DNA of 64,000 bases from an uncultured Chloroflexia bacterium (GTDB lineage: Bacteria > Chloroflexota > Limnocylindria > Limnocylindrales > CSP1-4): contig CAWABZ010000013.1 of NCBI GenBank assembly GCA_963780425.1, forward strand, positions 68,644 through 132,643. The letters are read 5' to 3'. The position numbers were made by a program, and so were the translations under genes. Shown piece by piece: positions 14,825 to 28,599 of the stretch; position 1 is the stretch's first letter, and each line of letters begins with the position of its first letter. Under the pieces are notes generated by a model. It ran no database searches, had not been told where the DNA came from, and saw only the letters and a list, made by a program, of their open reading frames with translations.

Positions 14825-16126
14825 TCAGGGCGCCAGTCGTTGCCACGCCGGTTGGCCATTATCCCCAGGCCATGGCGCGACGGCAGTCGCGCCGGTGAGC
14901 GGATCGACGGTCAGGCGGTTGGCGGCCCGACCCTTCTGCGTCGAAGTACACGCCGAATATCGACCCATCGTCGGGCGCCCAGACCCAGCGGGCGCACAGG
15001 TCGCCGAGGGAATCGCTTGGCCCGCTCGGACACTGGATCTCGACGTCGGGACCGACCCCGTCGACCGGGATCACCGCGGCACGATGGTCCGAGCCGTCTG
15101 GCGAGAAGATCCTCGTGATGATCAGGCGTGTCCCATCGTTCGACCAGACCGCGTCGCCGTCGGAGACCGCATCCGGGTGGTGGTCCACAGCGAACGTCGC
15201 CCGTGCCGTCCGCCGAGATGACGTGGGTTCGCCAGACGTCCTCGGCATCCATCGATACATACAGGATGCGAGAGCCATCCGGCGACCACGATCCGCCCCC
15301 GATCGCTACCAGTCGTCGGCTCGACGATCGTTCGAACGACGGACGTCGCGATGTCGACTGCAAACAGGCCTGTCACCCCGTCGTCGGCTCGATGGCCGGT
15401 GAAGAGGATCTCAGATCCGTTTGGCGGGCGGAACGACGGCGCCTCGACACTCATCCCGACGTCGATCGTTCGTATGGCCCCCGAGCCATCAGTCGGGATG
15501 AGGAGCATGGAAAAGGTGTTGTCGACCAAAGCCGTCGCCAGGATCGAGCGCCCGTCTGGCGAGAAGCTCCACGCGTCGTGGTACGGGCCGAATTCATCGA
15601 GCAGCTCTGGCGTGACCTGGATCATGTTCGTGCCGTCGGCATTCGCAACGAACAGCAGGGCGTTGCGACCCTCGCCCGTGCGGGCGAACGCAAAGCGCGT
15701 TCCATCCCTGGAGAAGATCGGACGCGCATCGAATGTGGACCCCGTGACCAGGGCCGCCGTCTGGCCGGTCACTGGATCCATCGAGTAGATGTCGCCCTCG
15801 GCGTCGTACGCGATCAACCCGTTGGCCGCCCGCCCGTATGGCGCGGGCAGACGCGGTCGTGAGCCGACGTACGCGGCGACCATCGCCGCAAGCAGGACGA
15901 CGAGCAGCGCGAAGACAGCGAGCCGGCGCCATGGCAACCGAGTCGTCGGGGTCCGCGCAGTCACAAGTTCCATGGGGAGCCACCTTTCGATGGATGCCCA
16001 GGCGGGTCGCTGACGCGTGCCGGCGGTCCGCCCGAGGATGTCTGTGAGGTAATCGGGCGTTCGCGGGTCAGCCAGGTCGGTCAGGGCGACGGGCAACTGA
16101 CGTTCGAAGGTATCGATCGGCATCAT
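14825..16126 (-). pseudogene. sigma-partner membrane protein (putative anti-sigma N-terminus + TM + PD40/TolB-like beta-propeller), 3 frame breaks as assembled
   Basis: The protein is spread over ORFs 15122..16126, 14911..15363 and 14859..15278, plus a hand-translated tail GRAANRLTVDPLTGATAVAPWPGDNGQPAWQRLAP* ending at 14825. Repeats SFSPDG, SWSPDG and WSNDG are present. It is colinear with the paralogue at 16787-18106. Confidence 0.7.
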
Positions 16127-16686
16127 GCGAACCGCCCTTCCGGCACGGCGATCGGATCCACGGCGTCATCGTTCGCAACGGTCGTGCGGAGCACGCCGAG
16201 CGCGCGGTGCAGCCGGGATTTCGCGGTGCCCAGCGGGATGCCCATGCAGGACGCGACGTCCGGCAGTGGCATGCCGAGGAAGTAGTGCAGGACGACGACC
16301 GCACGCCAGCCGGGCTCGAGGGTCCGGAGCGCGCGATCGAGCAGGTCGCGATCCACGACGCCACCGCTGAAATCGGCGGTCGACGGGACGTGGAGCGGAG
16401 TCAGCTCCACCTCGATCGCACGGCGCTTGCGGCGCCGGATCAGGTCGAGGCAGGCATTGACGAGCAGTCGATGGAGCCAGGCGTCGAACCGGTCCACGTC
16501 GCGCAACGTGGGGAGGTCGCGCCAGCTCCGGACGAGAGCCTCCTGGACAGCGTCCCGCGCAAGGTCGGTATCCCGGAGGATCAGGCGTGCGGCCGCGTCC
16601 AGGCGCGCGACGGCCGCGCCGGCCAGCATCGCGAAGGCGTCATGATCGCCTCGCTGCGCTCGCTCGACGAGACCTCGCTGGTCCAC
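16123..16686 (-). CDS. ECF (group 4) RNA polymerase sigma factor
   Basis: Region 2 reads DAVQEALVRSWRDL...FDAWLHRLLVNACLDLIRRR. Region 4 reads VVVLHYFLGMPLPDVASCMGIPLGTAKSRLHRAL. GTG start; the stop overlaps the partner start (ATGA). Confidence 0.9.
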   Translation of the reverse strand: MDQRGLVERAQRGDHDAFAMLAGAAVARLDAAARLILRDTDLARDAVQEALVRSWRDLPTLRDVDRFDAWLHRLLVNACLDLIRRRKRRAIEVELTPLHVPSTADFSGGVVDRDLLDRALRTLEPGWRAVVVLHYFLGMPLPDVASCMGIPLGTAKSRLHRALGVLRTTVANDDAVDPIAVPEGRFA

Positions 16687-16734
16687 GGTCGCCTCAGGGT
16701 GTCGGCACGACCGAGGTGGCCGTGCTCGACATCC

Positions 16735-16766
16735 TAGGGCGTCATCGATGCCGGAATTCGTTCCCG
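16735..16766 (-). promoter_or_regulatory. candidate ECF-type promoter, GGGAAC-N18-CGCC
   Basis: The minus strand reads cacGGGAACgaattccggcatcgatgaCGCCctagg, about 50 nt upstream of the sigma GTG. The same GAAC-N17-CGCC..ctag arrangement occurs upstream of the paralogous sigma gene. Confidence 0.3.
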
Positions 16767-16786
16767 TGTATCGATGGGTCAGTGAG

Positions 16787-18106
16787 TCACGGGGCTCGGC
16801 GCTGCCAGGTGGGAGTGCCAGTCGCCGTCCAGGGAGCCGGCCGGACCTTGCCGGTCAGTGGGTCGGCCAGGAACTGCGGTAAGGGCCGGCCGCTTGCGTC
16901 CGACGTGGTACCGAGGAGGACCGAGTCGTCGGGTGACCAGATCCAGTCGGCATTGCAAGCGTCTGGCGAAGCGAACGAAGCGCATTCGATGTCGATGCCG
17001 ACGCTACTGCCATCGGCCGGGACGATGGCGGACCGGATGATGTCGCCGTCTGCGCCGACGTACCACCGATTGACGATCAATCGGGTTCCGTCATTCGACC
17101 AGCCGCCGCCACCTCCGTCCGCGAAGCTGTCCGGATGAGCGTCGACCAGGACGTCGCCGGTCCCGTCGGCTGACATGACGTGGGTCCGCAACGATATCCT
17201 CGTCGTCGTTGGGATCGAAGACGGCATACGCGATCCGCGTCCCGTCGGGGGACCACGCCGCGACGGAGACGTCTGCCGTGGCCGACGGGGCGATGATCGT
17301 CCGGACATCACCGGTCGCGGGGTCGAATGCGTACAGGCCACGAGTCGTCGGCTCCGGGTTCGATCCCCTGGAACATGATCTCGGAGCCGTCCGGGCGGTA
17401 TCGCGGTGGTTCGTCATTCAACGTTGCCCCGACATCGAAGAACACCGGTGGGCCGCTGCCGTCGCTCGCCACGACCATGATCGTGGGTCCTGTTGGCGAG
17501 TGGCCAACGCGACGATCGAGCGGCCGTCGGGCGAGAAGCTCCAGGCGGCGAGACCGCTGAGCGGCTCGGGCGTGACCTGGACGAGCCCACGTCCGTCGTC
17601 CCTGGACGACGAACAGGAACCCGGGCCGGACGCCGCCATCGCCCTCGACCTTGCGTTCGAAGGCGACTCGAGTGCCGTCCAGCGAGTAGACGGGTTGACC
17701 GTCGACCTCCGGGCCGGCCACGATCCCGGTCGCCTTGCCGGTCACTGGGATCTGCGGTGTAGATGTCGCCGTCCTGGCCAAAGGCGATCGACCCGTTCGC
17801 TGCCGGACCGAACGGGACCGCCGGAACCGCCGCTGCGAGCCCGCGTAGAACGCGAGCATCGCCGCGAGCAGGGCTGCCAGGAGCGCGAAGCACACCGACG
17901 ATCCGCCATGGGACGCGCGGTGCGCCAGGCAACGCCTTGGTCGCGAGGTCCATCGGAAGCCACCTTTCAGGGAACGTCCAGGCGGGTCGCTGCCGCACGC
18001 GGGCGATCTGCTGGACGAGGTCATCTCGATAGTCGGGCGTCCCCTGCAGGTACAGGTCGGCGAGGAGCGCCGGCAGGTCATGCTCGAAGCGTCGCGGCGA
18101 GGTCAT
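16787..18106 (-). pseudogene. paralogous sigma-partner membrane beta-propeller protein, about 7 frame breaks as assembled
   Basis: A colinear protein can be traced only by hopping between ORFs 17414..18106, 17308..18081, 17418..17639, 17091..17417 and 16787..17341. Examples along the path are ...ERWLPM..., CFALLAALLAAML, VTGKATGIVAGPEV, AAWSFSPDGRS, VAAWSPDGTR and GGWSNDGTRL. Confidence 0.7.
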
Positions 18107-18667
18107 GCCAGCTGTCCTCCTGCGACGGCGACCGGGACGGGTTCGGGCTCGGCGGTCACGGTCGTCCGCATCGCGGCGAGCGCGTAGTGCAGGCGTGACT
18201 TGGCCGTCCCGTGCGGGATGCCCAGGGATGCCGCCACTTCTGGTAACGGCATCCCCAGGAGGTAGTGCAATGCGACGACCGCGCGGTGCCCGGGTGCGAG
18301 ACCCGCGAGGGCCTTGTCGAGCAGCTCACGGTCGGCGAGCGGCGCCTGCGACGTCGTCTGCCATCGGCGCGTCGATCGGCGTGAGCTCGACCTCGATGAC
18401 CCGACGCTTGCGACGCCGGACGAGATCGAGACAGGCATTGACGAGCAGGCGATGGAGCCAGGCGTCGAAACGGTCGGGATCGCGGAGACCCGGCAGGTCG
18501 CGCCACGCTCGGATGAGTGTCTCCTGGACCGCGTCGCGCGCGAGCTCCGAGTCCCGGAGGATCAGGCGGGCGGCCGCGTCCAGCCGCGCGAGGTGGACGT
18601 CGATGAGCGAGGTGAAGGCGTCATGCTCGCCCCGCCTCGCTCGTTCGACGAGTCCTCGCTGGTCCAC
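18103..18667 (-). pseudogene. ECF sigma factor paralogue, one frame break near 18345-18360 as assembled
   Basis: The first 97 aa are 79/97 identical to the sigma at 16123-16686 (counted by eye). Region 4 (VVALHYLLGMPLPEVAASLGIPHGTAKSRLHYAL) is in the other frame (ORF 18103..18438). Confidence 0.75.
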
Positions 18668-18711
18668 GGTCGCCTCTGATGCGGCACGGCCTTGGCGGTC
18701 GTGCTCGCTAG

Positions 18712-18781: not shown

Positions 18782-19534
18782 TCACTCCCAGCGGAAGGTG
18801 CGTGCGGCGCCGACCAGGGCCGCCACGCCCCACGCGGCGACGATCCCGAGGTTGATCGCGAGGCTCCCACCAGACCCGAGTGATGCGCGGAACGCTTCGG
18901 CGAGAGCACCGACCGGCAGCAGACCGGCGATCGACGCCAGCGGCCCCGGCAGGTCCTCGATCGGGACCAGCACGCCGCCGACCATGAGGGCGACGAGGAA
19001 CAACGCGTTCGCGAGCACGAGCGCGGCCTCGGGCCGGACCGTGCCGGCGATCAGCAGGCCGAGACCCGCGAAAGCCGTGGCGCCGACCAGCGTCGTCATG
19101 CCGACCGCCACGACCAGGCCGATGACAGAGCCGTCCGGACCGGGCCGCCAGCCGAGCACGACCCACGCGAGGGCGACGAGCGCCACGACCTGCGCAGCGG
19201 CGATGGAGGCGACCACGGCCAGCTTCGCGACCAGGAGACCCGCGCGACCGAGCGGCGATCCGCCCAGCCGCTTGAGCACGCCGTACCCGCGCTCATACGC
19301 GGTCGCGACCCCGAGGTTCACCAGCCCACTCGCGACGATCGCGAGTGCGAGCACCGCCGGTAGAAGGTCCGTCGCATCCCGCCGAGCCGGGGTCGCGACC
19401 AGTCCGAAGAAGACCAGGGCCGCCGCCGGGAGCCCGATCATCGCCAGCAGGTTCTCGCCGCGGCGTGCGGTCAGCCGCGCTTCCATCGTCGCCTGGGCGC
19501 GGACGGCTTGGCCGAACCTCGCGGGTTGACTCAT
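18782..19534 (-). CDS. ABC-2 type transporter permease
   Basis: The 250 aa from MSQPARFGQ have about 6 TM segments. The ATG overlaps the stop of the upstream ATPase frame (ATGA at 19531-19534). Confidence 0.85.
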   Translation of the reverse strand: MSQPARFGQAVRAQATMEARLTARRGENLLAMIGLPAAALVFFGLVATPARRDATDLLPAVLALAIVASGLVNLGVATAYERGYGVLKRLGGSPLGRAGLLVAKLAVVASIAAAQVVALVALAWVVLGWRPGPDGSVIGLVVAVGMTTLVGATAFAGLGLLIAGTVRPEAALVLANALFLVALMVGGVLVPIEDLPGPLASIAGLLPVGALAEAFRASLGSGGSLAINLGIVAAWGVAALVGAARTFRWE

Positions 19535-20485
19535 GCCGCCGCTTCGTCTCGACCATCTCCCGCCGTGGCCGTGCCAACGAGCGCGAGGTACGTGTCCTCG
19601 AGCGTCCCGCCGGTCGCCCGCGCGTCGGTGATCAGGCGACCCTCCGACGCGCACCACGACGCAAGCGCGGCGATCAGGGCGGGGCTCGGTGGGAGGTCCT
19701 CGACGATGTAGCGGCTCGCCCCGTCGATCGCGTGGACCGTCGCGCCGAGAGCCACGCCCAGCGCTCGGAGTGAGCCGTGGTCGAGTGGGGCCGCCAGGCC
19801 GAACCGCAGTCGCGCGGGCAGGCGCGCGGCCAGCTCCAGCGCGCTTCCGGCCGCCACGATCCGCCCTCCGACGAGGATCGCGATCCGGTCGGCGAGGCGC
19901 TCGGCGTCCCCGAGCTCGTGGGTCGTCGACGAGGACCGCCGTCCCGCGCGCGCGTTCCGCCTCGATCCGTGCCCGGACGACGGCGCGCACCTGGGGATCC
20001 ATCCCCGCGGTCGGTTCATCGAGGACCAGCACATCGGGCCGGCCGACGAGCGCGAGGGCGAACCCGAGTCGCTGGCGCTCCCCACCCGACAGGCGGCGGA
20101 ACGGGGTGGTCGCCACGTCCCGCAGGCCGAGCTCATCGAGAAGCGCATCCGGATCCGATGGATCCCGGTGGAACGCTGCGTACTGACGCAGGGTTTCGGC
20201 GGGGCGCGCCCGCGGATCGATACCGCCGCCCTGGAGCATCAGACCGACGCGCGCCCGGTGGGCCCGCCCCGCGCCCCACGGGTCGACGCCGAGGACGCGG
20301 ACGGTGCCCCCATCCGCGCGCCGATACCCCTCGGCGATCTCGACGGTCGTGGTCTTGCCGGCCCCGTTCGGCCCCAGCAACACGACGATCTCGCTCGGCC
20401 GAACCTCCAGCGATACGTCGTCGACGACCGTCCGGTCGCCGTAGCGCTTGGTCAGCCCATCGATCGCGACGGCCGGCTCAGCCAT
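19531..20485 (-). pseudogene. ABC transporter ATP-binding protein, frame broken near 19915-19930 as assembled
   Basis: Walker A (GPNGAGKTT), LSGGERQRL and VLVLDEPTAGMD are in the frame starting at 20485. The H-loop and C-terminus (THELGDAERLADRIAILVGGRIV...) are in ORF 19531..20148. Confidence 0.8.
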
Positions 20486-20497
20486 GCCGCGCCGCCC

Positions 20498-20902
20498 TCA
20501 CCGTATGCGTGCGTAGTGGCGCTCGAACTCGACGTCGGTCATCGGGCCGCCGATCTGCAGCGACCGGAGGACGCCCGCTCGATCGACGAACCACGTATGC
20601 GGACGGGCCACGACGCGATACGCGCGCTTGATCGACTCGCCCGGGTCGATGACGGTCGGCCACGACGCACCGTACTCAGCCACGAATCGGCGGGCGGGCT
20701 CCGGTGGGTCGTCGGTCAGGACGCCGACGATCGCCAGGCCATCGGCCGCGTGCTCGTCGAGCTCGTGGAGGAACTGCGGGAACTCGTCCCGACAGGGGAT
20801 GCATGACGGACCCCAGAAGTTGACGATCACCGGTCGACCTCGATAGCTCGCGAGGTCGAATGCCGTGCCATCGAGGGTCGTCCCCACGATCGGCGGCGCC
20901 AT
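20498..20902 (-). CDS. TlpA/ResA-like thiol:disulfide oxidoreductase (thioredoxin fold, CxxC)
   Basis: VIVNFWGPSCIPCRDEFP is the active-site motif. A signal-anchor-like segment (RRRRDFVTPRRPILVALAIATLTAVGVWWFV) is encoded in frame upstream at 20903-21037, with no ATG, GTG or TTG. Confidence 0.8.
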   Translation of the reverse strand: MAPPIVGTTLDGTAFDLASYRGRPVIVNFWGPSCIPCRDEFPQFLHELDEHAADGLAIVGVLTDDPPEPARRFVAEYGASWPTVIDPGESIKRAYRVVARPHTWFVDRAGVLRSLQIGGPMTDVEFERHYARIR

Positions 20903-21037
20903 GACGCCGATCTCGGCCCGCGGTTCGGCGTAGTCGGTGTTGACGAACCACCAGACCCCGACCGCTGTCAGCGTGGCGATGGCCAGGGCGACGAGGATCG
21001 GTCGACGCGGCGTGACGAAGTCCCTTCGGCGACGACC

Positions 21038-22135
21038 CTACTGGATCGTTGCGGACCCGGTCATGTTCGGGTGGACCGAGCAGACGTAACCGTACGTCCC
21101 CGCGCCGAGCGCCGGGACGTCGTAGACCTTGGTCGCGACGCCGGCAAAGATCTCGCCCTTGAACACGCTCGTACCGCCGCCATCCTTGATCTCGACGTTG
21201 TGCAGGATGCCGGGATCGTCGTTGACGAACTCGAGCTTGAACGGGACGTCGGCCGGCGCAGTGATGGTGCTTTCGACGAAGGCGACGTCTTTCGCGTGGA
21301 TGACCGGCTCGCCGGGTGGACCTCCGCTGGCCCCCGGCGAGGCCCCGGGCTCCCCCGGCCCGCCCGGTTCGACCGGGGCCCCCGACGGCCCCGCCGCCTC
21401 ACCACCGCTGGCGCGCGGCGGGATCCAGCCGACCTGGATCACGAAGCCGGCAACGAGCAGCAGTCCGAGTGAGGTCAGCAGCCACTTCGGGGTCGGCGGA
21501 TCCGGCATCGTCTCGAGGTGGCCGGTCGTGTCGGCCTCTTCGGTCTTGACGAACTCCTGGCGGGCCGCCGACATCCAGCCGAGCAGCGACAGGATGAATG
21601 CGATGACGCCGACTGCCAGGAGCCACTCTCCGAAGACGAGGCCCAGCAGGAGCATCGCCATCCCGATCGCGGCCAGGAACGGCAGGAACGACGGGCCCGG
21701 CATGTGCACACCCGCCGGCGGCCCGTCGTGGACGACTGCCGGCAACGGGGGAGCTGTCGCGCCCAGGTCGCGGTCGTACAGCCGGAGAGACTCGGCCAGC
21801 CAGTAGAGCAGCGTCAGCGCGAAACCGATCGCTCCGAGGACGAGCACCGCTCCCCCGAAGACGAGACCGAGGAACAACATGAACGCGCCGATCGCGGCGA
21901 AGACCGGGGCCCACGAGGGGCCCGGCATGTGAACGCCGGGCGGCGGGATGGGCTCGATCCTTTGCTTGCCGCGGCGAGGTTTCGGCGCCCGGAGGAGCTT
22001 CCACAGCGTGGCGACGATGACGAGGACCGATGCTGCGAAGATGAGGACCGGCAGCGCCGCGACGACCGAGCCCCAGTCCGGGATGACGAACTTCGCCGTC
22101 AGCTCCAGGATCCCGTTCCAAAAGTCCTCGAACAT
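21038..22135 (-). CDS. membrane protein: two tandem CtaF-C-terminal-like 2-TM modules fused to a C-terminal type-1 copper (cupredoxin) domain
   Basis: The internal repeat is GVHMPGPSWAPVFAAIGAFMLFLGLVFG / GVHMPGPSFLPFLAAIGMAMLLLGLVFG. The C-terminal domain has HNVEI ... YVCSVHPNM (His, Cys-x2-His-Pro-x-Met). Confidence 0.75.
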   Translation of the reverse strand: MFEDFWNGILELTAKFVIPDWGSVVAALPVLIFAASVLVIVATLWKLLRAPKPRRGKQRIEPIPPPGVHMPGPSWAPVFAAIGAFMLFLGLVFGGAVLVLGAIGFALTLLYWLAESLRLYDRDLGATAPPLPAVVHDGPPAGVHMPGPSFLPFLAAIGMAMLLLGLVFGEWLLAVGVIAFILSLLGWMSAARQEFVKTEEADTTGHLETMPDPPTPKWLLTSLGLLLVAGFVIQVGWIPPRASGGEAAGPSGAPVEPGGPGEPGASPGASGGPPGEPVIHAKDVAFVESTITAPADVPFKLEFVNDDPGILHNVEIKDGGGTSVFKGEIFAGVATKVYDVPALGAGTYGYVCSVHPNMTGSATIQ

Positions 22136-22145
22136 GGGATCCAGG

Positions 22146-22340
22146 TCAGTCGTTCGGGGAACCGGCGATCAGCACGTACGCCAGGATGCTCACTGCCACG
22201 CCGAGCAGGATCAGCATCGTGACGCCGGCGTAGTCGACATGCCAGCCGGCGATCGACTGGACGGCCCAGTACACGGCGCCGGTCGCCGAGAACACGAGAC
22301 CCACGACGATCGCGTTGCGCGGATGGCGAAGCGGATGCAT
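22146..22340 (-). CDS. small 2-TM membrane protein, resembles the N-terminal half of actinobacterial cytochrome oxidase subunit IV (CtaF)
   Basis: 64 aa located between ctaE and the CtaF-like/cupredoxin gene. VDYAGVTMLILLGVAVSILAYVL is recalled as similar to the CtaF TM2 region; this family assignment is from memory only. Confidence 0.5.
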   Translation of the reverse strand: MHPLRHPRNAIVVGLVFSATGAVYWAVQSIAGWHVDYAGVTMLILLGVAVSILAYVLIAGSPND

Positions 22341-22345
22341 GACGC

Positions 22346-22999
22346 TTACGCCTTGCCCGGCAGCAGGTACAGCAGCGAGAACAGCAGGATCCAGACGACG
22401 TCGACGAAGTGCCAGTACAACGACACGGCCTCGACGGCATCGTGGTGGCGCGCCGAGAACTGCCCGGCCAAGCCGCGATACAGGACGACCGCGAGCATGA
22501 TCGCGCCACCGAACACGTGCGCCCCGTGGAACCCCGTGAGCGTGAAGTAGGTCGTGCCGAACGTGCCCGACGACAGCGTGATGCCCTCATTGCCGAGGGC
22601 GACGTAGTCGGTCGCCTGCAGGAGCAGGAACACGACGCCGATGAGGAACGTGACCGCGATGTTGCGGATGAACGCCGTCCGGTCGCCGCGGCGGATGCCC
22701 CACACGGCGAACTGGCACGTGAACGACGACAGGATCAGCAGGACCGTGGCCGGGCCGACCAGTGGCAGGATCTCGAGGTGGAATGCCTCACCCGTCTCGA
22801 CGTTGACCGGCGGCCAGGCAGGGGCGTTCGCGCGGACGTTGAAGTAGGCCGCGAAGAGACCGGCGAAGAACATCACCTCGGAGGTGATGAACAGCAGCAT
22901 CCCGAGGACGACGTTGCTGATCCCGCCACGTGCGTCGTGCGCCAGCCCGGCGACCGGGCTGTGCTCGGTGGTCGTCAGGGCGTGATCGTCGATGGCCAT
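22346..22999 (-). CDS. ctaE: cytochrome c oxidase subunit III
   Basis: The sequence from MAIDDHAL contains FITSEVMFFAGLFAAYF, YFTLTGFHGAHV and LYWHFVDVVWI. Confidence 0.9.
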   Translation of the reverse strand: MAIDDHALTTTEHSPVAGLAHDARGGISNVVLGMLLFITSEVMFFAGLFAAYFNVRANAPAWPPVNVETGEAFHLEILPLVGPATVLLILSSFTCQFAVWGIRRGDRTAFIRNIAVTFLIGVVFLLLQATDYVALGNEGITLSSGTFGTTYFTLTGFHGAHVFGGAIMLAVVLYRGLAGQFSARHHDAVEAVSLYWHFVDVVWILLFSLLYLLPGKA

Positions 23000-23003
23000 G
23001 GCG

Positions 23004-24665
23004 TCAGCTCTCGCTCGCCGACTGGGGCAGCGGCGCGATCGTCCGGTGCGTCGATCCGTGGCGGACGTCGAACACCGGCCGCTCGGACCGGATCTCGGGC
23101 AGGCGGTCGAAGTTATACGGCGGCGGCGGCGAGCTCGTTGCCCACTCGAGGGTGTTGCCCTCCCACGGGTCGTCGCCGGCGGGCTTCCCGCTGCGCAGCG
23201 AGACGAACACATTCCAGAGCAGCGGGACCATGCTCGTCGCGATGAGGAACCCGCCGATGGTCGCCGCGATGTTGAGGTCGTTCCAGCCTGCGCCCGACGC
23301 GTAGTCGGCGATCCGCCGCGGCATGCCGGCCAGGCCGAGCTGGTGCATCGGGAAGAACGTCAGGTTGAAACCGATGAACATCAGCACGAACTGGACCTTG
23401 CCCAGCCCTTCATTGAGCATCCGCCCGGTCATCTTCGGGAACCAGTAGTAGAGGCCGGCCATCACCCCGAACACCGACCCGCCGAACAGGACGTAATGCA
23501 GGTGGGCGACGACCCAGTACGTGTCGTGGAGGGCGAAGTCGACCGGGACGGCGGCGCTGAACGCGCCGTTGATGCCGCCGATCAGGAACATGCTCAGGAA
23601 GCCGAGTGCGAAGAGCAGCGGCGTCGACAGGCTGAGCTGGCCGCGCCACATGGTGAAGATCCAGTTGAACATCTTCACGCCGGTCGGGACCGCGATGAGG
23701 AACGTCATCAGGCTGAAGAACGGCAGGTAGACCGCGCCTGTCGTGAACATGTGGTGCGCCCACACGGAGAACCCGAGCGCACCGATGCCGGCCGTCGCGA
23801 AAACGAACGCCTTGTACCCGAACAGCGGTTTGCGGCTGAACACCGGCAGGATCTCGCTGATCATGCCCATCGCCGGCAGGACCATGATGTACACAGCCGG
23901 GTGCGAGTAGAACCAGAAGATGTTCTGGTAGAGGATCGCGTCACCGCCGTTGCGTGGATCGAAGAAGCTGCCGCCGTAGTTCCTGTCGATGAACAGCATG
24001 ATCAGGGCGCTGGTGATGACCGGCGTGGCGAGCAGACCCAGGACCGACGTGGTCAGCACCGTCCAGACCATGATCGGCATGCGGAACAGCGTCATGCCCG
24101 GCGCCCGCATCTTGAAGATCGTCACGAGGAAGTTGACCGCCCCGAGGATCGAGCTCGTGCCGATCAGCACGATCGCCACGATCCACAGGTCCTGCCCCGG
24201 CCCGACCGATGACAGCGGGCGATCCTCGGTCAAGGGGGCGTAGCTCGTCCACCCGGCCGCTGCCGATCCGCCGGTGAAGAAGCTCAGGATGAGCAGGATG
24301 CCCGCGAGCGGCAGCATCCACAGCGAGAGCGCATTGATGCGCGGGAACGCGACGTCCGGGGCGCCGATCTGGAGCGGGACGATGTAGTTCCCGAAGCCCG
24401 CCAGGATCGGGATGATGAACAGGAAGATCATGAACGTGGCGTGCATCGTGAACAGCTCGTTGTAGGTCTGGTCCGCCACGAACTGCAGCCCCGGCTGGGC
24501 CAGCTCCGAGCGCACGCCCAGCGCCAGCAGGCCGCCGATGAAGAAGAACAGGAACGAGTTGATCAGGTACATGATCCCGATCTTCTTGTGATCGGTCGTC
24601 GTCACCCAGTCGTACAGGGTGCTGCGGTAGGCGCGGGCGGCCGGGTGTAGCGCGGTTGTCGCCAC
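23004..24665 (-). CDS. ctaD: cytochrome c oxidase subunit I (heme-copper oxidase, aa3 type)
   Basis: 553 aa with [28 protein letters not shown] and [11 protein letters not shown]. Confidence 0.95.
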
Positions 24666-24674
24666 GGCGTGCTC

Positions 24675-25832
24675 CTACTCGACCGTGAGGGTGCCGGCCA
24701 TCGTGGGATGGACCGAACAGATGAAGCCATACGTGCCGGCCTTTAGGGCAGGCACGTCATACGTCTTCTTGGCTGGTCCCGGGAAGACTTCGCCCTTGAA
24801 GACCTCGGGCCCCGCCGGCGAGCCCTCGTGGATCGCGACGTTATGAGGGATCGAGGCATCGCGATTGTCGAAGTCGATCTTGAACGGCGTGTCGGCCGGC
24901 GCGCTGAGGGCCGCCGTGTCGAACTGGACGTTCTGGGCGGCGATCTGGAGGGCCGGCCCGGCCGGCTGTCCCGATGGGGGCGGTGGCGGGCTGGCGTTCG
25001 CTTCGGCGATCTTGCCCTCCAACCAGGTGTCGAAGTCGGCGCCGGTCATCGCGTGGACGTCGAAGTGCATCGCGTTGTGGCTGACGCCGCACAACTCGGC
25101 GCATTGACCGTGGAACGTCCCGCCGGCATCCGACTCCTTGAGCGTGAACTCGAAGCTGTTCACCCGGCCTGGCACGACGTCCCGCTTGAACAGGAATTGC
25201 GGGACGTAGAACGCGTGGATGACGTCGGGGCTTTGGAGATAGAGGTGGATGGTCCGTCCGGTCGGCAGCACCAATCCGCCGTCGGGTCCCTCGGGCGTCG
25301 TGACCGTGTAGAGCGGCGTGGTCTCCTGGCCAGCCTGATAGTCGGCCGGCAGGTAATCGAACGTCCAAAGGAACTGTGCCGCGAACGCGCGCACCTTCAT
25401 CTGCGGCTGCGGGGAGACCGCCTCGACCGTATTCAGCGTCTGCCAGGAGATGACGAACATGAAGGCGACGATGAGGGTCGGGACGACAGTCCACACCACC
25501 TCGGCGATCGCGTTGCCGTGCGTCTGGGCCGGCAGCTCGTTGTCGCCCGGCTTGCGCCGGTAGCGGATCACCGTCCAGACGATCAGGCCCTCGACCACGA
25601 AGAAGATGACCGCGGCGATCGCAAAGATGATGTCGTACAGGTTGCGGATGCTCTCTCCGCGATCGGTGATCGCGCGCGGCGGGAAGAAGCTCGAGAGGAT
25701 CCCCTGACTGGTCTTCAGCGGGTCGAATCCCTGGCTGATGACGACCGCGACGACGCCGACGATCAGCAGCGCTCCCACCAGGAGGGCGGCGATCGCGGTG
25801 GATGAGCGGCCGGTCCTGGGGGAACTCGCCAT
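24675..25832 (-). CDS. ctaC: cytochrome c oxidase subunit II with an extra C-terminal cupredoxin (type-1 copper) domain
   Basis: The CuA site is HAFYVP...CAELCGVSHNAM. A Pro-rich linker (PPPPPSGQP) follows. The second domain has PHNVAI ... FICSVHPTM. Start taken as MASSPRT at 25832. Confidence 0.9.
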   Translation of the reverse strand: MASSPRTGRSSTAIAALLVGALLIVGVVAVVISQGFDPLKTSQGILSSFFPPRAITDRGESIRNLYDIIFAIAAVIFFVVEGLIVWTVIRYRRKPGDNELPAQTHGNAIAEVVWTVVPTLIVAFMFVISWQTLNTVEAVSPQPQMKVRAFAAQFLWTFDYLPADYQAGQETTPLYTVTTPEGPDGGLVLPTGRTIHLYLQSPDVIHAFYVPQFLFKRDVVPGRVNSFEFTLKESDAGGTFHGQCAELCGVSHNAMHFDVHAMTGADFDTWLEGKIAEANASPPPPPSGQPAGPALQIAAQNVQFDTAALSAPADTPFKIDFDNRDASIPHNVAIHEGSPAGPEVFKGEVFPGPAKKTYDVPALKAGTYGFICSVHPTMAGTLTVE

Positions 25833-26031
25833 GCAGCTCCTCGGTGCAGGGGCAGACGGGCACGTCCTAACCCGCCCGGGCCGGACGGCGGCCATGATAC
25901 CGCGGAGGGTCGGCGTCTCGTGCGCCCGACCGCGCTGGGTCGTGGGACCATGCCGTCGATGCACCACCGAGCGGTCCCTGCGCGCCACCCCAGCCACCGA
26001 TCCACGTCGCTGGCGGTCCTGAGCGCCATTC

Positions 26032-27053
26032 GTGGCGACCGCGCTCATCGCGACGCCTGCGGGGGCGCACGGCCCGACGCCTGCCGAACCACCCGACGCC
26101 TCCACACTCCTCTTCGGCTGGACGTTCGAGCCGTTGCCGACGATCGCGATCCTCGCGCGCCTTGATCTGGTGGCGTTGGGCTGTCGGCCGGGTGAACGCG
26201 GCACACCCCGCCAATCCTGTGCCGCGACGTCGGACCGTCGCCTTCGTGGGGGGCATGGCCGCCCTGGCATTCGCGCTGCTGTCCGGGATCGACCGCTACG
26301 ACACGAGCCTGTTCTCGGTCCACATGGTCCAGCACGTCCTGCTGACCCTTGTCGCGGCGCCACTCATCGCGCTCTCCGCGCCGATCACCGTGCTGCTCCG
26401 GGTCGCCTCGCCGGGCACCCGCCGGCGCGTGCATCCTGCCGCTGCTCCACGCGCGGATCACGCGCGTCCTGGCGTTCCCGGTCGTGGCCTGGCTGATCTT
26501 CGCCGCGGTCATGTGGGTGAGCCACTTCTCGCCGCTGTTCGATGCGGCGCTCGAGGATCCGCTCATCCATGACCTCGAGCACGTCATCTTTTTCGCCGCC
26601 GCATTGCTGTTCTGGTGGCCGGCCGTCGCGCTCGACCCCGCACCGTGGCGGATGCCGCATCCGGTCCGTGCCCTGTACGTGTTCCTGCAGATGACGCAGA
26701 ACACGCTCCTTGCGGTCGTCATCGTGAACGCGCAGACCGTCCTGTATCCCCACTACGCGACGGTCCAGCGTGCCTGGGGACCGACGCCGCTGGCCGACCA
26801 GCAGATGGCCGGAGCGTTCATGTGGGTCGCCGGCGACCTTCTGTTCCTGACCGCGACGATGGCGATCCTTGTCGGCTGGTCGCGGGCCGAGGGACGGGAC
26901 GCGGCGCGCGAGGACCGTCGGGCGGCGGCGGAGCTGGCCGAGATCCGGATCCGCGAGGACCGTCTGGCCGACCGCCTCGCGCGCGAACGCGAGGACGCCC
27001 CGAGCGACGAGCGCGCTCTCGACGCTCAGCCCGGGAGGGGCGCCTCGAGGTAA
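26032..27053 (+). pseudogene. ctaG: cytochrome c oxidase assembly factor CtaG (caa3_CtaG family membrane protein), 2 frame breaks as assembled
   Basis: The protein is traced over ORFs 26032.., 26162.. and 26349... The segments are LLFGWTFEPLPTIAIL, then IWWRWAVGRV...SVHMVQHVLLTLVAAPLIAL, then ILPLLHARITRVLAFPVVAW...HDLEHVIFF...WWP. Confidence 0.75.
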
Positions 27054-28012
27054 GCGCGGTAGGCGACCGGGTCGACGTTGCCACCGCTCACGACGGCCAC
27101 GATGTCACCACCGCCGTCGCCGCCCAACTCCGCGCGATGGAACGTGAGCGCCGCGATCGCCAGCGCGCCCGACGGCTCCACGACCAGCCGCGACCGTTCC
27201 GCCGCGAGCCGGACGCCGGCCGCGATCTCCGCCTCACTGACCGTGACGATCCCGTCGAGGTACGCGCGCAGGTGGGCAAAGGTCAGGGCGCCAAGTGCCT
27301 GGGTCCGCGTGCCGTCGGCGATCGTCCGCGCAACGTCAGCGGCCGACCAACGGACGATCGATCCGGTTGCCAGCGAATCGCGCGCATCAGCCGCGAGCTC
27401 GGGCTCGACGCCGACCACCCGAACGTCCGGGCGCAGGCTCTTGATCGCGGTCGCGACACCGCTCGCCAACCCGCCGCCGCCGACCGGCACCAGCACGAGA
27501 CCCGTCGTCGGCAGGTCCTGGACGATCTCGAGGCCGATCGTGCCCTGGCCGGCGATGATCCGGTCGTCATCGAACGGCGGGATGATCGCCAGACCGCGCT
27601 CCGCCGCGATCGACTCCGCGCGTGCCTGGCGCTCGTCCGACGCGGGACCGACGATCACGATCTCTGCGCCATCGGCGGCCACGCGATCGCGCTTGATCAT
27701 CGGCGCGTCGTCCGGCATGACGATCACTGCGGTCGTGCCCAGCAGACGGGCTGCTCGGGCGACGCCCTGGGCATGGTTACCCGACGAGTAGGTGATGACG
27801 CCCCGGCTGCGATCCTCCGGCGAGAGCGCGGCGATCGCGACATACGCGCCGCGGATCTTGAACGCCCCGATCGCCTGGAGGCTCTCCGCCTTGAGAAACA
27901 CGCGCTCGTCGGGCGATCCGTACGGGACCAGGGGCGTCCGGAGCACGACGCCATCGAGGAGCGCCGCCGCCGCCTCGATCGCCGGCGGACCGACGAGGTC
28001 CTGGCTGATCAC
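27026..28012 (-). CDS. PLP-dependent threonine/serine dehydratase (threonine ammonia-lyase family)
   Basis: The PLP lysine motif is SLQAIGAFKIRGA; also SSGNHAQGVA and the GGGGL loop. The GTG start at 28012 overlaps the upstream stop (GTGA). Confidence 0.85.
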   Translation of the reverse strand: MISQDLVGPPAIEAAAALLDGVVLRTPLVPYGSPDERVFLKAESLQAIGAFKIRGAYVAIAALSPEDRSRGVITYSSGNHAQGVARAARLLGTTAVIVMPDDAPMIKRDRVAADGAEIVIVGPASDERQARAESIAAERGLAIIPPFDDDRIIAGQGTIGLEIVQDLPTTGLVLVPVGGGGLASGVATAIKSLRPDVRVVGVEPELAADARDSLATGSIVRWSAADVARTIADGTRTQALGALTFAHLRAYLDGIVTVSEAEIAAGVRLAAERSRLVVEPSGALAIAALTFHRAELGGDGGGDIVAVVSGGNVDPVAYRAYLEAPLPG

Positions 28013-28353
28013 CGCCTCGCCTTGTCGACGGCGCTCTGGCAGCCGATGCAATGCGCGGCCCACGGCAGCGCCTCGAGGCGCTCCGGAGCGATCGGCTCGC
28101 CGCAGCGCACGCATGTCCCGAATGACCCGTCGGCCAGCCGCGCGAGCGCGGAATCGACGAGCTCGAGCTGCTGCACCGCGCGGTCGCGCAGGGCCAGGTC
28201 GCGCTGCTGTTCGAAGACCTGGCTGGCGGCGGCGGCCTGCGACCCATACGTCATCTGGCCGGGTGCTTGGATCGCCTCGCCGAGCTCGGCGAGCAGGCGC
28301 TTGCGCTCGGCCTCGAGCGCGGAGCGCATCTGGGCGGGATCGATGGTCGCCAT
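28009..28353 (-). CDS. DksA/TraR-family C4 zinc-finger protein
   Basis: 114 aa from MATIDPAQ, with a coiled-coil N-terminus followed by CVRCGEPIAPERLEALPWAAHCIGC. Confidence 0.8.
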   Translation of the reverse strand: MATIDPAQMRSALEAERKRLLAELGEAIQAPGQMTYGSQAAAASQVFEQQRDLALRDRAVQQLELVDSALARLADGSFGTCVRCGEPIAPERLEALPWAAHCIGCQSAVDKARR

Positions 28354-28413: not shown

Positions 28414-28428
28414 CGGAGAGGAGTGCCG

Positions 28429-28599
28429 ATGGACATCGAGATCGATCCCGTGTGCGGGATGGAGGTCGACATGACCACCTCCCTGCTGTCCTTTGACCAT
28501 GAGGGGAAGACATACTGGTTCTGCGGCAAGGGCTGCCTGCTCGACTTCCGTGACGACCCCGAGAAGTACCTGGATCCGGAATACACGCCCTCGATGTGA
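28429..28599 (+). CDS. YHS-domain metal-binding protein (56 aa; below the ORF-track cutoff)
   Basis: Hand translation gives MDIEIDPVCGMEVDMTTSLLSFDHEGKTYWFCGKGCLLDFRDDPEKYLDPEYTPSM*. An RBS (ggagaggag) lies 6 nt upstream. DPVCGM...YWFC..GC..F..DP.KY is the YHS/TRASH pattern. Confidence 0.75.
   Translation: MDIEIDPVCGMEVDMTTSLLSFDHEGKTYWFCGKGCLLDFRDDPEKYLDPEYTPSM

Follow-up and report, generated by a model that had tools for sequence, protein, structure and literature searches.

The subject of this analysis is an oxidase operon, and in particular two genes downstream of its ctaE gene, p64 and p365, in a 64,000-nt stretch of DNA (hereafter the window) from an uncultured Chloroflexia bacterium (GTDB order Limnocylindrales; NCBI GenBank assembly GCA_963780425.1, contig CAWABZ010000013.1, positions 68,644 to 132,643). 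The G+C content of the window is 64-73%, and the oxidase genes form a row on its minus strand. The row starts with ctaC (24675..25832), which encodes oxidase subunit II (385 amino acids, aa) and is recognized by the Pfam models COX2_TM, COX2, Cupredoxin_1 and Copper-bind as well as by the NCBIfam model CoxB (168 bits). It is followed by ctaD (23004..24665; subunit I, 553 aa), identified as an open reading frame (ORF) with the motif described below, and by ctaE (22346..22999; 217 aa, Pfam COX3), which encodes a short subunit III with five transmembrane helices (TMs). The next two ORFs are p64 (22146..22340; 64 aa, 2 TM) and p365 (21038..22135; 365 aa), both assigned by their homologue families and p64 also by its fixed position. 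A gene for a TlpA/ResA-like thiol-disulfide oxidoreductase (hereafter redoxin) lies 3' of p365, and ctaG (25959..27050, plus strand), encoding an assembly factor of the Pfam family Caa3_CtaG, is divergent to the row. The intergenic gaps from ctaC to p365 are 3-10 nt, with p64 starting 5 nt past the ctaE stop and ending 10 nt ahead of the p365 start.

Gene boundaries and frame breaks were judged by reference to a relative, locus L001, that is 93-99% identical (98% for CtaC and 99% for the COX1 gene corresponding to ctaD); the start of ctaE was taken from the orthologue. Compared with L001, ctaC, ctaD, ctaE, p64 and p365 are intact. Against its 97%-identical L001 orthologue, ctaG falls into four frame pieces in a tblastn search, with three frameshifts near 26030, 26160 and 26430. 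The breaks could reflect either indels introduced during assembly or genuine gene decay, and conclusions at the family level are unaffected.

To survey the locus in other genomes, profile searches were run on six-frame ORFs, which yielded 83 loci, all from metagenome-assembled genomes of Chloroflexota/Limnocylindrales. The order of the divergent ctaG followed by ctaC, ctaD, ctaE, p64, p365 and the redoxin gene is kept wherever a locus extends far enough for the order to be judged. p365 belongs to a large family of full-length homologues with 1546 matches; the best 120 of them are all 355-390 aa long and 60-95% identical. The gene-position index lacks the exact protein of the window but includes one that is 95% identical. 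In a scan with one genome per species, 238 genomes encode a p365 relative. The best 80 of these are all metagenome-assembled Chloroflexota, mostly Candidatus Limnocylindrales or Limnocylindria. The G+C fraction at third codon positions is 0.89 in the p365 ORF, and in both ORFs it is typical of genes in a 70% G+C window. p64 and p365 are real, intact and conserved genes.

Two entries of the survey, L050 and L051, share 13 kb of 100% identical sequence and occupy the same contig (JBCLDE010000003.1; 76,410 bp), lying in opposite orientation at equal distances from its midpoint. This contig is a palindromic assembly artefact and holds no true duplication of the oxidase operon. The TAG stop codon of p365, found in 76 of the 83 loci, was considered as a special feature and discarded as unremarkable, since TAG ends 12 of 28 genes in the window.

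Domain organization of p365

Both proteins had been described in an initial annotation made from the sequence alone, namely as a 64-aa 2-TM protein and a 365-aa protein in which two tandem 2-TM modules, a Gly/Pro-rich linker and a cupredoxin follow each other, next to the ctaCDE genes. The coordinates, sizes and motifs given there agree with the present analysis, and the architecture is found beside ctaCDE in all loci surveyed.

The membrane part of p365 comprises six predicted TMs. The protein begins with an acidic amphipathic helix, predicted to lie outside, and TM1 (aa 1-49; 21989..22135, on the minus strand as all features of p365; AlphaFold2 helices 2-15 and 21-49). Residues W6, L10, L12 and V17-W21 are invariant in the family alignment of 44 sequences, and the N-terminal tail has a Lys + Arg count of 0.9 and an Asp + Glu count of 3.7. 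Two helical hairpins follow: hairpin A (TM2-3; aa 62-124; 21764..21952), with modeled helices at 76-93 and 95-124, and hairpin B (TM4-5; aa 137-204; 21524..21727), with modeled helices at 151-168 and 170-204. TM6 (aa 217-238; 21422..21487), assigned from a modeled helix at 217-236, hydropathy and charge distribution, is predicted to return the chain to the outside. It leads into a Gly/Pro/Ser/Ala-rich linker (aa 239-277; 21305..21421) that is predicted to be disordered, with a predicted local distance difference test score (pLDDT) below 50 for residues 237-273. Measured between TM6 and the cupredoxin profile matches, the linker has 26-56 residues (median 35) in the 83 loci, and many alignment indels fall within it.

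The two hairpins are tandem repeats, as had been proposed. The gap-free alignment of residues 60-124 with residues 135-199 has 48% identity, and its score of 152 compares with -11.6 +/- 11.6 for shuffled sequences (z = 14). On the cytoplasmic side, the invariant motif G-V-H-M-P-G-P-S-W-x-P stands ahead of hairpin A and HMPGPSF.P ahead of hairpin B; the common HMPGPS is located at aa 69 and 144. A further invariant cytoplasmic motif, E-A-D-x-T-G-H-L-E, is found between hairpin B and TM6 (aa 200-208; 21512-21538, minus strand). Its position and charged residues would be compatible with a role near a proton-uptake site.

The orientation of p365 was predicted from the distribution of positive charges. 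Among the 44 family members, Lys + Arg amount on average to 12.4 in the predicted inner loops versus 1.9 in the outer segments, which places the N-terminus and the domain behind TM6 outside. The cupredoxin is thus predicted to be extracytoplasmic, in line with the tethered domain of the initial annotation.

The C-terminal domain (aa 278-365; 21041..21304) is a type-1 (blue) copper cupredoxin. It matches Pfam Cupredoxin_1 with 33.4 bits, above the cut-off, and a profile of the p365 family finds amicyanin (E=1.4e-8) and also auracyanin A in the PDB. The beta-sandwich of residues 278-364 is modeled with a pLDDT >90. Foldseek returns amicyanin (E=3.8e-8), auracyanin A/B (2e-7 to 2e-6) and plastocyanins (up to ~1e-5) for it. 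The predicted copper ligands H312, C352, H355 and M358, contained in the motifs HNVEI (aa 312) and CSVHPNM (aa 352), are invariant in the 44 sequences, and the Cys-x2-His-x2-4-Met ligand loop is kept in 83 of 83 loci. In three loci (L041, L045 and L046) this loop is longer and reads C-S-I/L-H-P-I-P-A/D-M.

A second type-1 cupredoxin forms the C-terminus of CtaC (~aa 305-385; 24678-24920, minus strand), where it is located behind a short Pro-rich linker and downstream of the CuA site CAELCGVSHNAM at aa 244. Between the profile matches, the CtaC linker has 15-47 residues (median 28). The two cupredoxins share 55% identity (E=8e-32), which agrees with the paralogy suggested in the initial annotation. 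In 121 of 122 cases, the nearest neighbor of a domain is of the same cupredoxin type, so that the domains form two separate orthologous groups and the duplication is older than the radiation of these genomes. In a subclade of four loci (L028, L041, L045 and L046), an intact CtaC ends just after the CuA domain and the p365 cupredoxin is kept. As the latter is present in all 83 loci and four CtaC proteins are without one, the p365 copy is the universal one, and it appears to be the indispensable member of the pair.

Relationship of the hairpins to subunit III and CtaF

The initial annotation had compared the p365 repeats with the C-terminal half of CtaF, subunit IV of actinobacterial oxidases (PF12270). 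This comparison holds: p365 matches the Pfam model with 31.1 bits (gathering cut-off 26.9 bits), restricted to model positions ~78-125 of 132. Submitted alone, repeat 2 scores 31.2 bits at positions 78-123 and repeat 1 scores 15 bits at positions 82-125. Since both fall on the C-terminal positions of the model, the counterpart of each is the C-terminal pair of helices in CtaF. CtaF itself was not found in the PDB directly by p365, by the p365 family profile or by a profile of the hairpin.

What the hairpin profile does find among all PDB sequences is a different set of oxidase subunits. It yields 15 matches at E<=10, each of which falls either on the first helix pair of COX3 or on the extra C-terminal helices of QoxB. 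The best match is to Rhodobacter sphaeroides COX3 (1m56_C, residues 10-63, E=0.014), and the others have E-values of 0.04-1, including residues 580-623 of QoxB from the Bacillus subtilis aa3-600 oxidase (E=0.045); residues 8-64 of mouse and bovine COX3 are matched as well. The motifs ahead of the hairpins are in register, HMPGPSWAP and HMPGPSFLP of p365 aligning with HILPPSIWP of R. sphaeroides and YHMVNPSPWP of mouse, and the motif His of p365 is matched to His10 in subunit III of R. sphaeroides. The motif is located on the predicted cytoplasmic side of p365, as it is in solved oxidases.

A link to complete CtaF was obtained through intermediate sequences. A profile search of 1.84 billion representative proteins returned only 541 relatives at E<=0.001, three of which contain complete CtaF-like 4-TM units. 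At full length, these units align with mycobacterial CtaF (hhalign 84%, E=7.8e-6), and their second halves align with the p365 hairpin (hhalign 98.7%, E=4e-16). The mycobacterial and Corynebacterium CtaF sequences used here were confirmed against PDB chains 8HCR_H, 6ADQ_H and 7Q21_F. The first 60 residues of p365 have no match to CtaF. The four central helices of p365 can be aligned collinearly with a whole CtaF-like 4-TM unit, and hairpin A itself may replace the N-terminal half of CtaF.

CtaE matches the Pfam COX3 model only at positions 76-255 of 258 and has five hydrophobic cores; helices 1 and 2 of canonical COX3 are absent from it. In CtaD, likewise, no additional pair of helices is present at the C-terminus. 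With both subunits devoid of this element, the p365 hairpins are the sole candidates within the operon for the missing helices 1-2. In Actinobacteria, CtaE and CtaF together are the equivalent of subunit III, with CtaF supplying the counterparts of helices 1 and 2 (PMC8361435). The CtaF comparison of the initial annotation accordingly stops short of a deeper identity of the repeat: judged by these alignments, the hairpins are best described as the TM1-2 module of the canonical 7-TM subunit III, a module that apparently also forms the C-terminal half of CtaF and the C-terminal helices of QoxB.

p365 is nevertheless distinct from each of these proteins. Actinobacterial CtaF (6ADQ/6HWH chain H, 8HCR_H, 7Q21_F) shares with it the homologous hairpin, the 5-TM CtaE partner and the location in a cta cluster, but is a protein of 139-143 aa and 4 TM, in which a single hairpin of this kind follows an N-terminal helix pair of a different type. 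p365, in contrast, has 6 TM, two hairpins, no detectable N-terminal half and a fused cupredoxin, and its link to CtaF runs via the Pfam model and intermediate sequences rather than via a direct PDB match. With helices 1-2 of COX3 and the extra helices of QoxB it shares the motif H-x-x-x-P-S-x-W-P on the N-side, the hairpin length and the orientation. There, however, the module is single and a covalent part of subunit III or I, whereas in p365 it is duplicated, placed on a separate polypeptide and joined to a redox domain.

Other arrangements of the same elements occur. Three proteins of 413-423 aa (P0306, P0355 and P0385) consist of two complete CtaF-like 4-TM units around a soluble domain of ~100 aa, and two proteins of 355-382 aa (P0325 and P0357) begin with a soluble domain of 200 aa, continue with two hairpins and carry no cupredoxin.

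The small protein p64 and the neighboring genes

p64 belongs to a family of 929 homologues, nearly all of which have 64 aa and are 73-97% identical. In the loci surveyed it is always found between ctaE and p365. The protein has 2 TM with both termini inside and a positively charged N-terminus. Its conserved elements are an invariant N-terminal HPLRHPRNA, the outer loop VDYAG(V)T and a C-terminal AGSPND, and its mean column identity of 83% compares with 67% for p365. The family has no Pfam family of its own, and matches to Pfam and the PDB are at chance level only.

The initial annotation had likened p64 to the N-terminal half of CtaF. An ancestral 4-TM CtaF would then have been split, with p365 carrying the duplicated C-terminal half together with the cupredoxin. 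p64 lies directly upstream of p365, its size, topology and loop length are the same as those of the CtaF N-terminal half, and its loop VDYAGVT resembles the mycobacterial VEWAGTT. When p64 is compared by hhalign with 123 mycobacterial CtaF sequences, its residues 14-47 align collinearly with CtaF 12-46 (P=0.035, probability 1.5%), an alignment that is lost once Corynebacterium CtaF is added. Similarly, a hidden Markov model (HMM) of p64 scores 11-12 bits on the N-terminal halves of Mycobacterium tuberculosis and M. smegmatis CtaF, a level reached by only 5-8 of 3000 segment-shuffled decoys, but 0.3 bits on that of Corynebacterium, which is no better than decoys. The reverse search, with an HMM of the CtaF N-terminal half against p64, does not exceed the decoys either. 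Neither p64 nor any of 35 relatives (0 of the 36 family members tested) matches PF12270 even at E<=10, and a PDB search with a p64 profile retrieves no CtaF chain. p64 is also unmatched to the N-terminal halves of those CtaF-like 4-TM units whose C-terminal halves match the hairpin so clearly, and the collinearity of the four central p365 TMs with a whole unit leaves hairpin A as a possible stand-in for that half. With a similarity that is not reproducible, the assignment of p64 to CtaF, and with it the split subunit IV, is not supported and is regarded as unlikely. p64 is better described as a putative lineage-specific small subunit of the oxidase and joins the candidate small oxidase subunits annotated as 'hypothetical'. 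Five apparent fusions of p64 and p365 (P0276, P0302, P0366, P0299 and P0379) were discarded as Rosetta-stone evidence. They contain wrong-frame stretches rich in Arg and Pro and are gene calls across frameshifts.

Wherever a locus reaches far enough, the redoxin gene is found 3' of p365. Its product, with the motif CIPC, is recognized by Pfam AhpC-TSA/Redoxin and NCBIfam ResA and is likely a maturation factor for copper sites. The gene is called from an internal ATG (20498-20902, minus strand); the sequence upstream of this codon codes for a conserved N-terminal signal anchor ((T/M)PRRPILVALAIA...). The corresponding start position is occupied by ATG in 14 genomes, by GTG in 3 and by ACG in 43, including the window (21011-21013, preceded by AAGGGA). 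These counts point to ACG as a conserved non-canonical start codon, from which the gene would extend over 20498..21013 and include the signal anchor. A read-through of the p365 stop into the redoxin gene was considered and rejected: 36 of 38 loci in a first subset share the frame, but frames 0, 1 and 2 occur 33, 32 and 17 times in the full survey, so that no constraint is apparent.

Beside ctaG, at 28423-28599 (plus strand) and in the 28009-28350 region, a 58-aa YHS-domain metal-binding protein, a DksA/TraR zinc-finger gene and a PALP-family enzyme are encoded. Their positions are kept in L001-L003, which hints at a copper-related neighborhood. 3' of the redoxin gene, an ABC transporter ATPase gene (19534-20485, minus strand) has a frame change near 19927 relative to its L001 orthologue, resulting in a 567-aa chimeric ORF that runs into the permease gene. 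Tandem pairs of an extracytoplasmic function (ECF) sigma factor and a PD40/Tricorn-like beta-propeller protein are located at 14859-18700 (minus strand), the second pair being split over overlapping frames; up to four such pairs in a row are found in relatives (L003).

The redoxin, CtaG and the nearby YHS protein fit the maturation of several copper sites. The same neighborhood, with the redoxin gene 3' and ctaG upstream, would also be expected if the p365 cupredoxin served in copper delivery or storage for the assembly of CuA and CuB, and some PDB members of Cupredoxin_1 (4hcf/4hcg) are uncharacterized metal binders. Such a role is nonetheless judged improbable. The domain has the complete His-Cys-His-Met ligand set with a short amicyanin-type loop in all loci, and its closest structures are amicyanin, auracyanin and plastocyanin. 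The known CuA chaperones, Sco and PCuAC, have other folds and ligands. Moreover, a domain that is permanently joined to a structural part of subunit III is more readily seen as belonging to a functional subunit than to an assembly factor.

Oxidase type and proposed role of p365

CtaD carries the motif YSHP at aa 253 (nt 23898-23909) and no GHPEV. In the Pereira classification, a Tyr-Ser pair (YSHP) replacing the glutamate of helix VI is the mark of the A2 subfamily of heme-copper oxidases. The A2 members studied are caa3 enzymes, in which a cytochrome c is fused to subunit II. No CxxCH heme-c motif is found in CtaC, CtaD or p365. By these motifs, the enzyme looks like a caa3-type oxidase with copper domains in place of cytochrome c. 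The caa3 oxidases of Thermus and Rhodothermus share with it the YSHP motif in subunit I and a carrier domain fused to the C-terminus of subunit II beside CuA. Their carrier, however, is a heme-c domain instead of a cupredoxin, and in the Limnocylindrales operon a second carrier is present on another subunit and subunits I and III are unfused.

Membrane-attached type-1 copper proteins that replace cytochrome c as donors to heme-copper oxidases are represented by sulfocyanin (Sulfolobus SoxM), halocyanin (Natronomonas) and auracyanin B (Chloroflexus). Unlike the domains described here, each of them is a small polypeptide of its own, attached by a single anchor or a lipid, and none is fused to subunit II or to a piece of subunit III. 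Halocyanin is an oxidase substrate, and sulfocyanin is encoded with the SoxM supercomplex and integrated in it (PMC3062577). For membrane-tethered auracyanin B, a function in Chloroflexus respiration has been proposed (PMC3150298).

Taken together, the operon is read here, with moderate confidence, as encoding an A2-type aa3 oxidase that has no cytochrome c domain and two built-in type-1 copper domains, and of which p365 would be a composite subunit that completes subunit III. This suggests an oxidase that does without cytochrome c, its electron shuttles being copper domains of its own. At least one hairpin of p365 would most likely dock on CtaE and CtaD, which would bring back the cytoplasmic loop at the entrance of the D-pathway as well as the lipid/O2 cleft. 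Subunit III is known to guard against suicide inactivation, to shape proton uptake at this entrance and to form a lipid-filled cleft proposed for O2 entry (PMC8361435). The second hairpin, TM1 and TM6 may add anchorage or a second contact. With TM6 leading outside, a flexible leash of ~40 residues would hold the p365 cupredoxin as a captive electron carrier, which could accept electrons from a quinol-oxidizing complex and deliver them to CuA, with or without the CtaC-fused paralogue as an intermediate. This paralogue would be positioned like the cytochrome c domain in caa3 enzymes, and p64 would be a further lineage-specific 2-TM subunit. The data show the hairpin homology and its duplication, the lack of helices 1-2 in CtaE, the fold and ligand set of the copper domain, its predicted location outside, the paralogy of the cupredoxins and the constant gene order; we infer the assembly with CtaC, CtaD and CtaE, the completing hairpin, the role and direction of electron transfer and the identity of the donor.

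Several points weigh against this model. That p365 and p64 are part of the enzyme is suggested by homology and gene order. The similarity of the hairpins to COX3 is weak when taken match by match (E 0.014-1) and convincing only since all matches fall on one element, and the Pfam COX3 model has no match to the hairpins at E<=10. The AlphaFold model of p365 has a mean pLDDT of 72 and a whole-chain predicted template modeling score (pTM) of 0.31, so that it gives no reliable packing of the predicted hairpins; among structures, none of an oxidase from Limnocylindria was found. An invariant motif ahead of both hairpins is not what would be predicted if one completed subunit III and the other were ballast. 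Among the 20 further genes of the window, no bc-type complex or alternative complex III is encoded that could serve as a partner. Finally, with ctaG frameshifted, the copy in the window may form no active enzyme unless the breaks are assembly errors.

The invariance of the full cytoplasmic motif in both hairpins, as if each had a specific docking site, has a place in another arrangement, in which p365 belongs to a different complex or links two: each hairpin would bind a separate 5-TM subunit III and so staple together two oxidase monomers, or the oxidase and a quinol-oxidizing partner, with the cupredoxin shuttling between the joined complexes. The proteins described above with two hairpins and no cupredoxin, or with two CtaF-like units, are compatible with this arrangement, and where supercomplex structures have been solved, complex III or alternative complex III is contacted through the side formed by subunit III (PMC8361435). 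The arrangement is nonetheless considered very improbable, as the operon has only one ctaE, the 25 residues that connect the hairpins would make a short bridge between two enzymes and the modeled packing is unreliable.

Starting from the A2-type oxidase with a p365-completed subunit III, a more far-reaching scheme may be put forward as speculation, although it is rather doubtful. The respiratory chain of Limnocylindria could operate without cytochrome c on the way from quinol oxidation to oxygen, by a relay from the p365 domain on its long leash to the CtaC domain on its short leash and on to CuA, with the duplicated module acting as a staple to a partner or to a second oxidase.

The domain pair of p365 is already visible in databases, as relatives carry automatic labels such as 'plastocyanin', 'Cytochrome c oxidase subunit IV/Cupredoxin-like domain' and 'aa3-type cytochrome oxidase subunit IV'. 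In the full-text literature, no paper was found on the p365 architecture or on the respiration of Limnocylindria; subscription journals are mostly outside the coverage of this search, and the absence is no proof.

p365 joins three known ideas in one protein, namely the mobile helix pair of subunit III, the carrier-fused oxidase and the replacement of cytochrome c by blue copper. Throughout an uncultured, widespread Chloroflexota class of soil and freshwater (238 species-level genomes), this combination is fixed. If the model holds true, p365 would represent a natural tethered copper electron relay in a proton-pumping oxidase, and the operon would be a second, independent case of a split subunit III besides that of Actinobacteria. 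If relay and staple were both real, they would amount to a new design of a respiratory supercomplex with a built-in copper wire. The oxidase would also provide a handle on the respiration of the abundant Limnocylindria of soil and freshwater.

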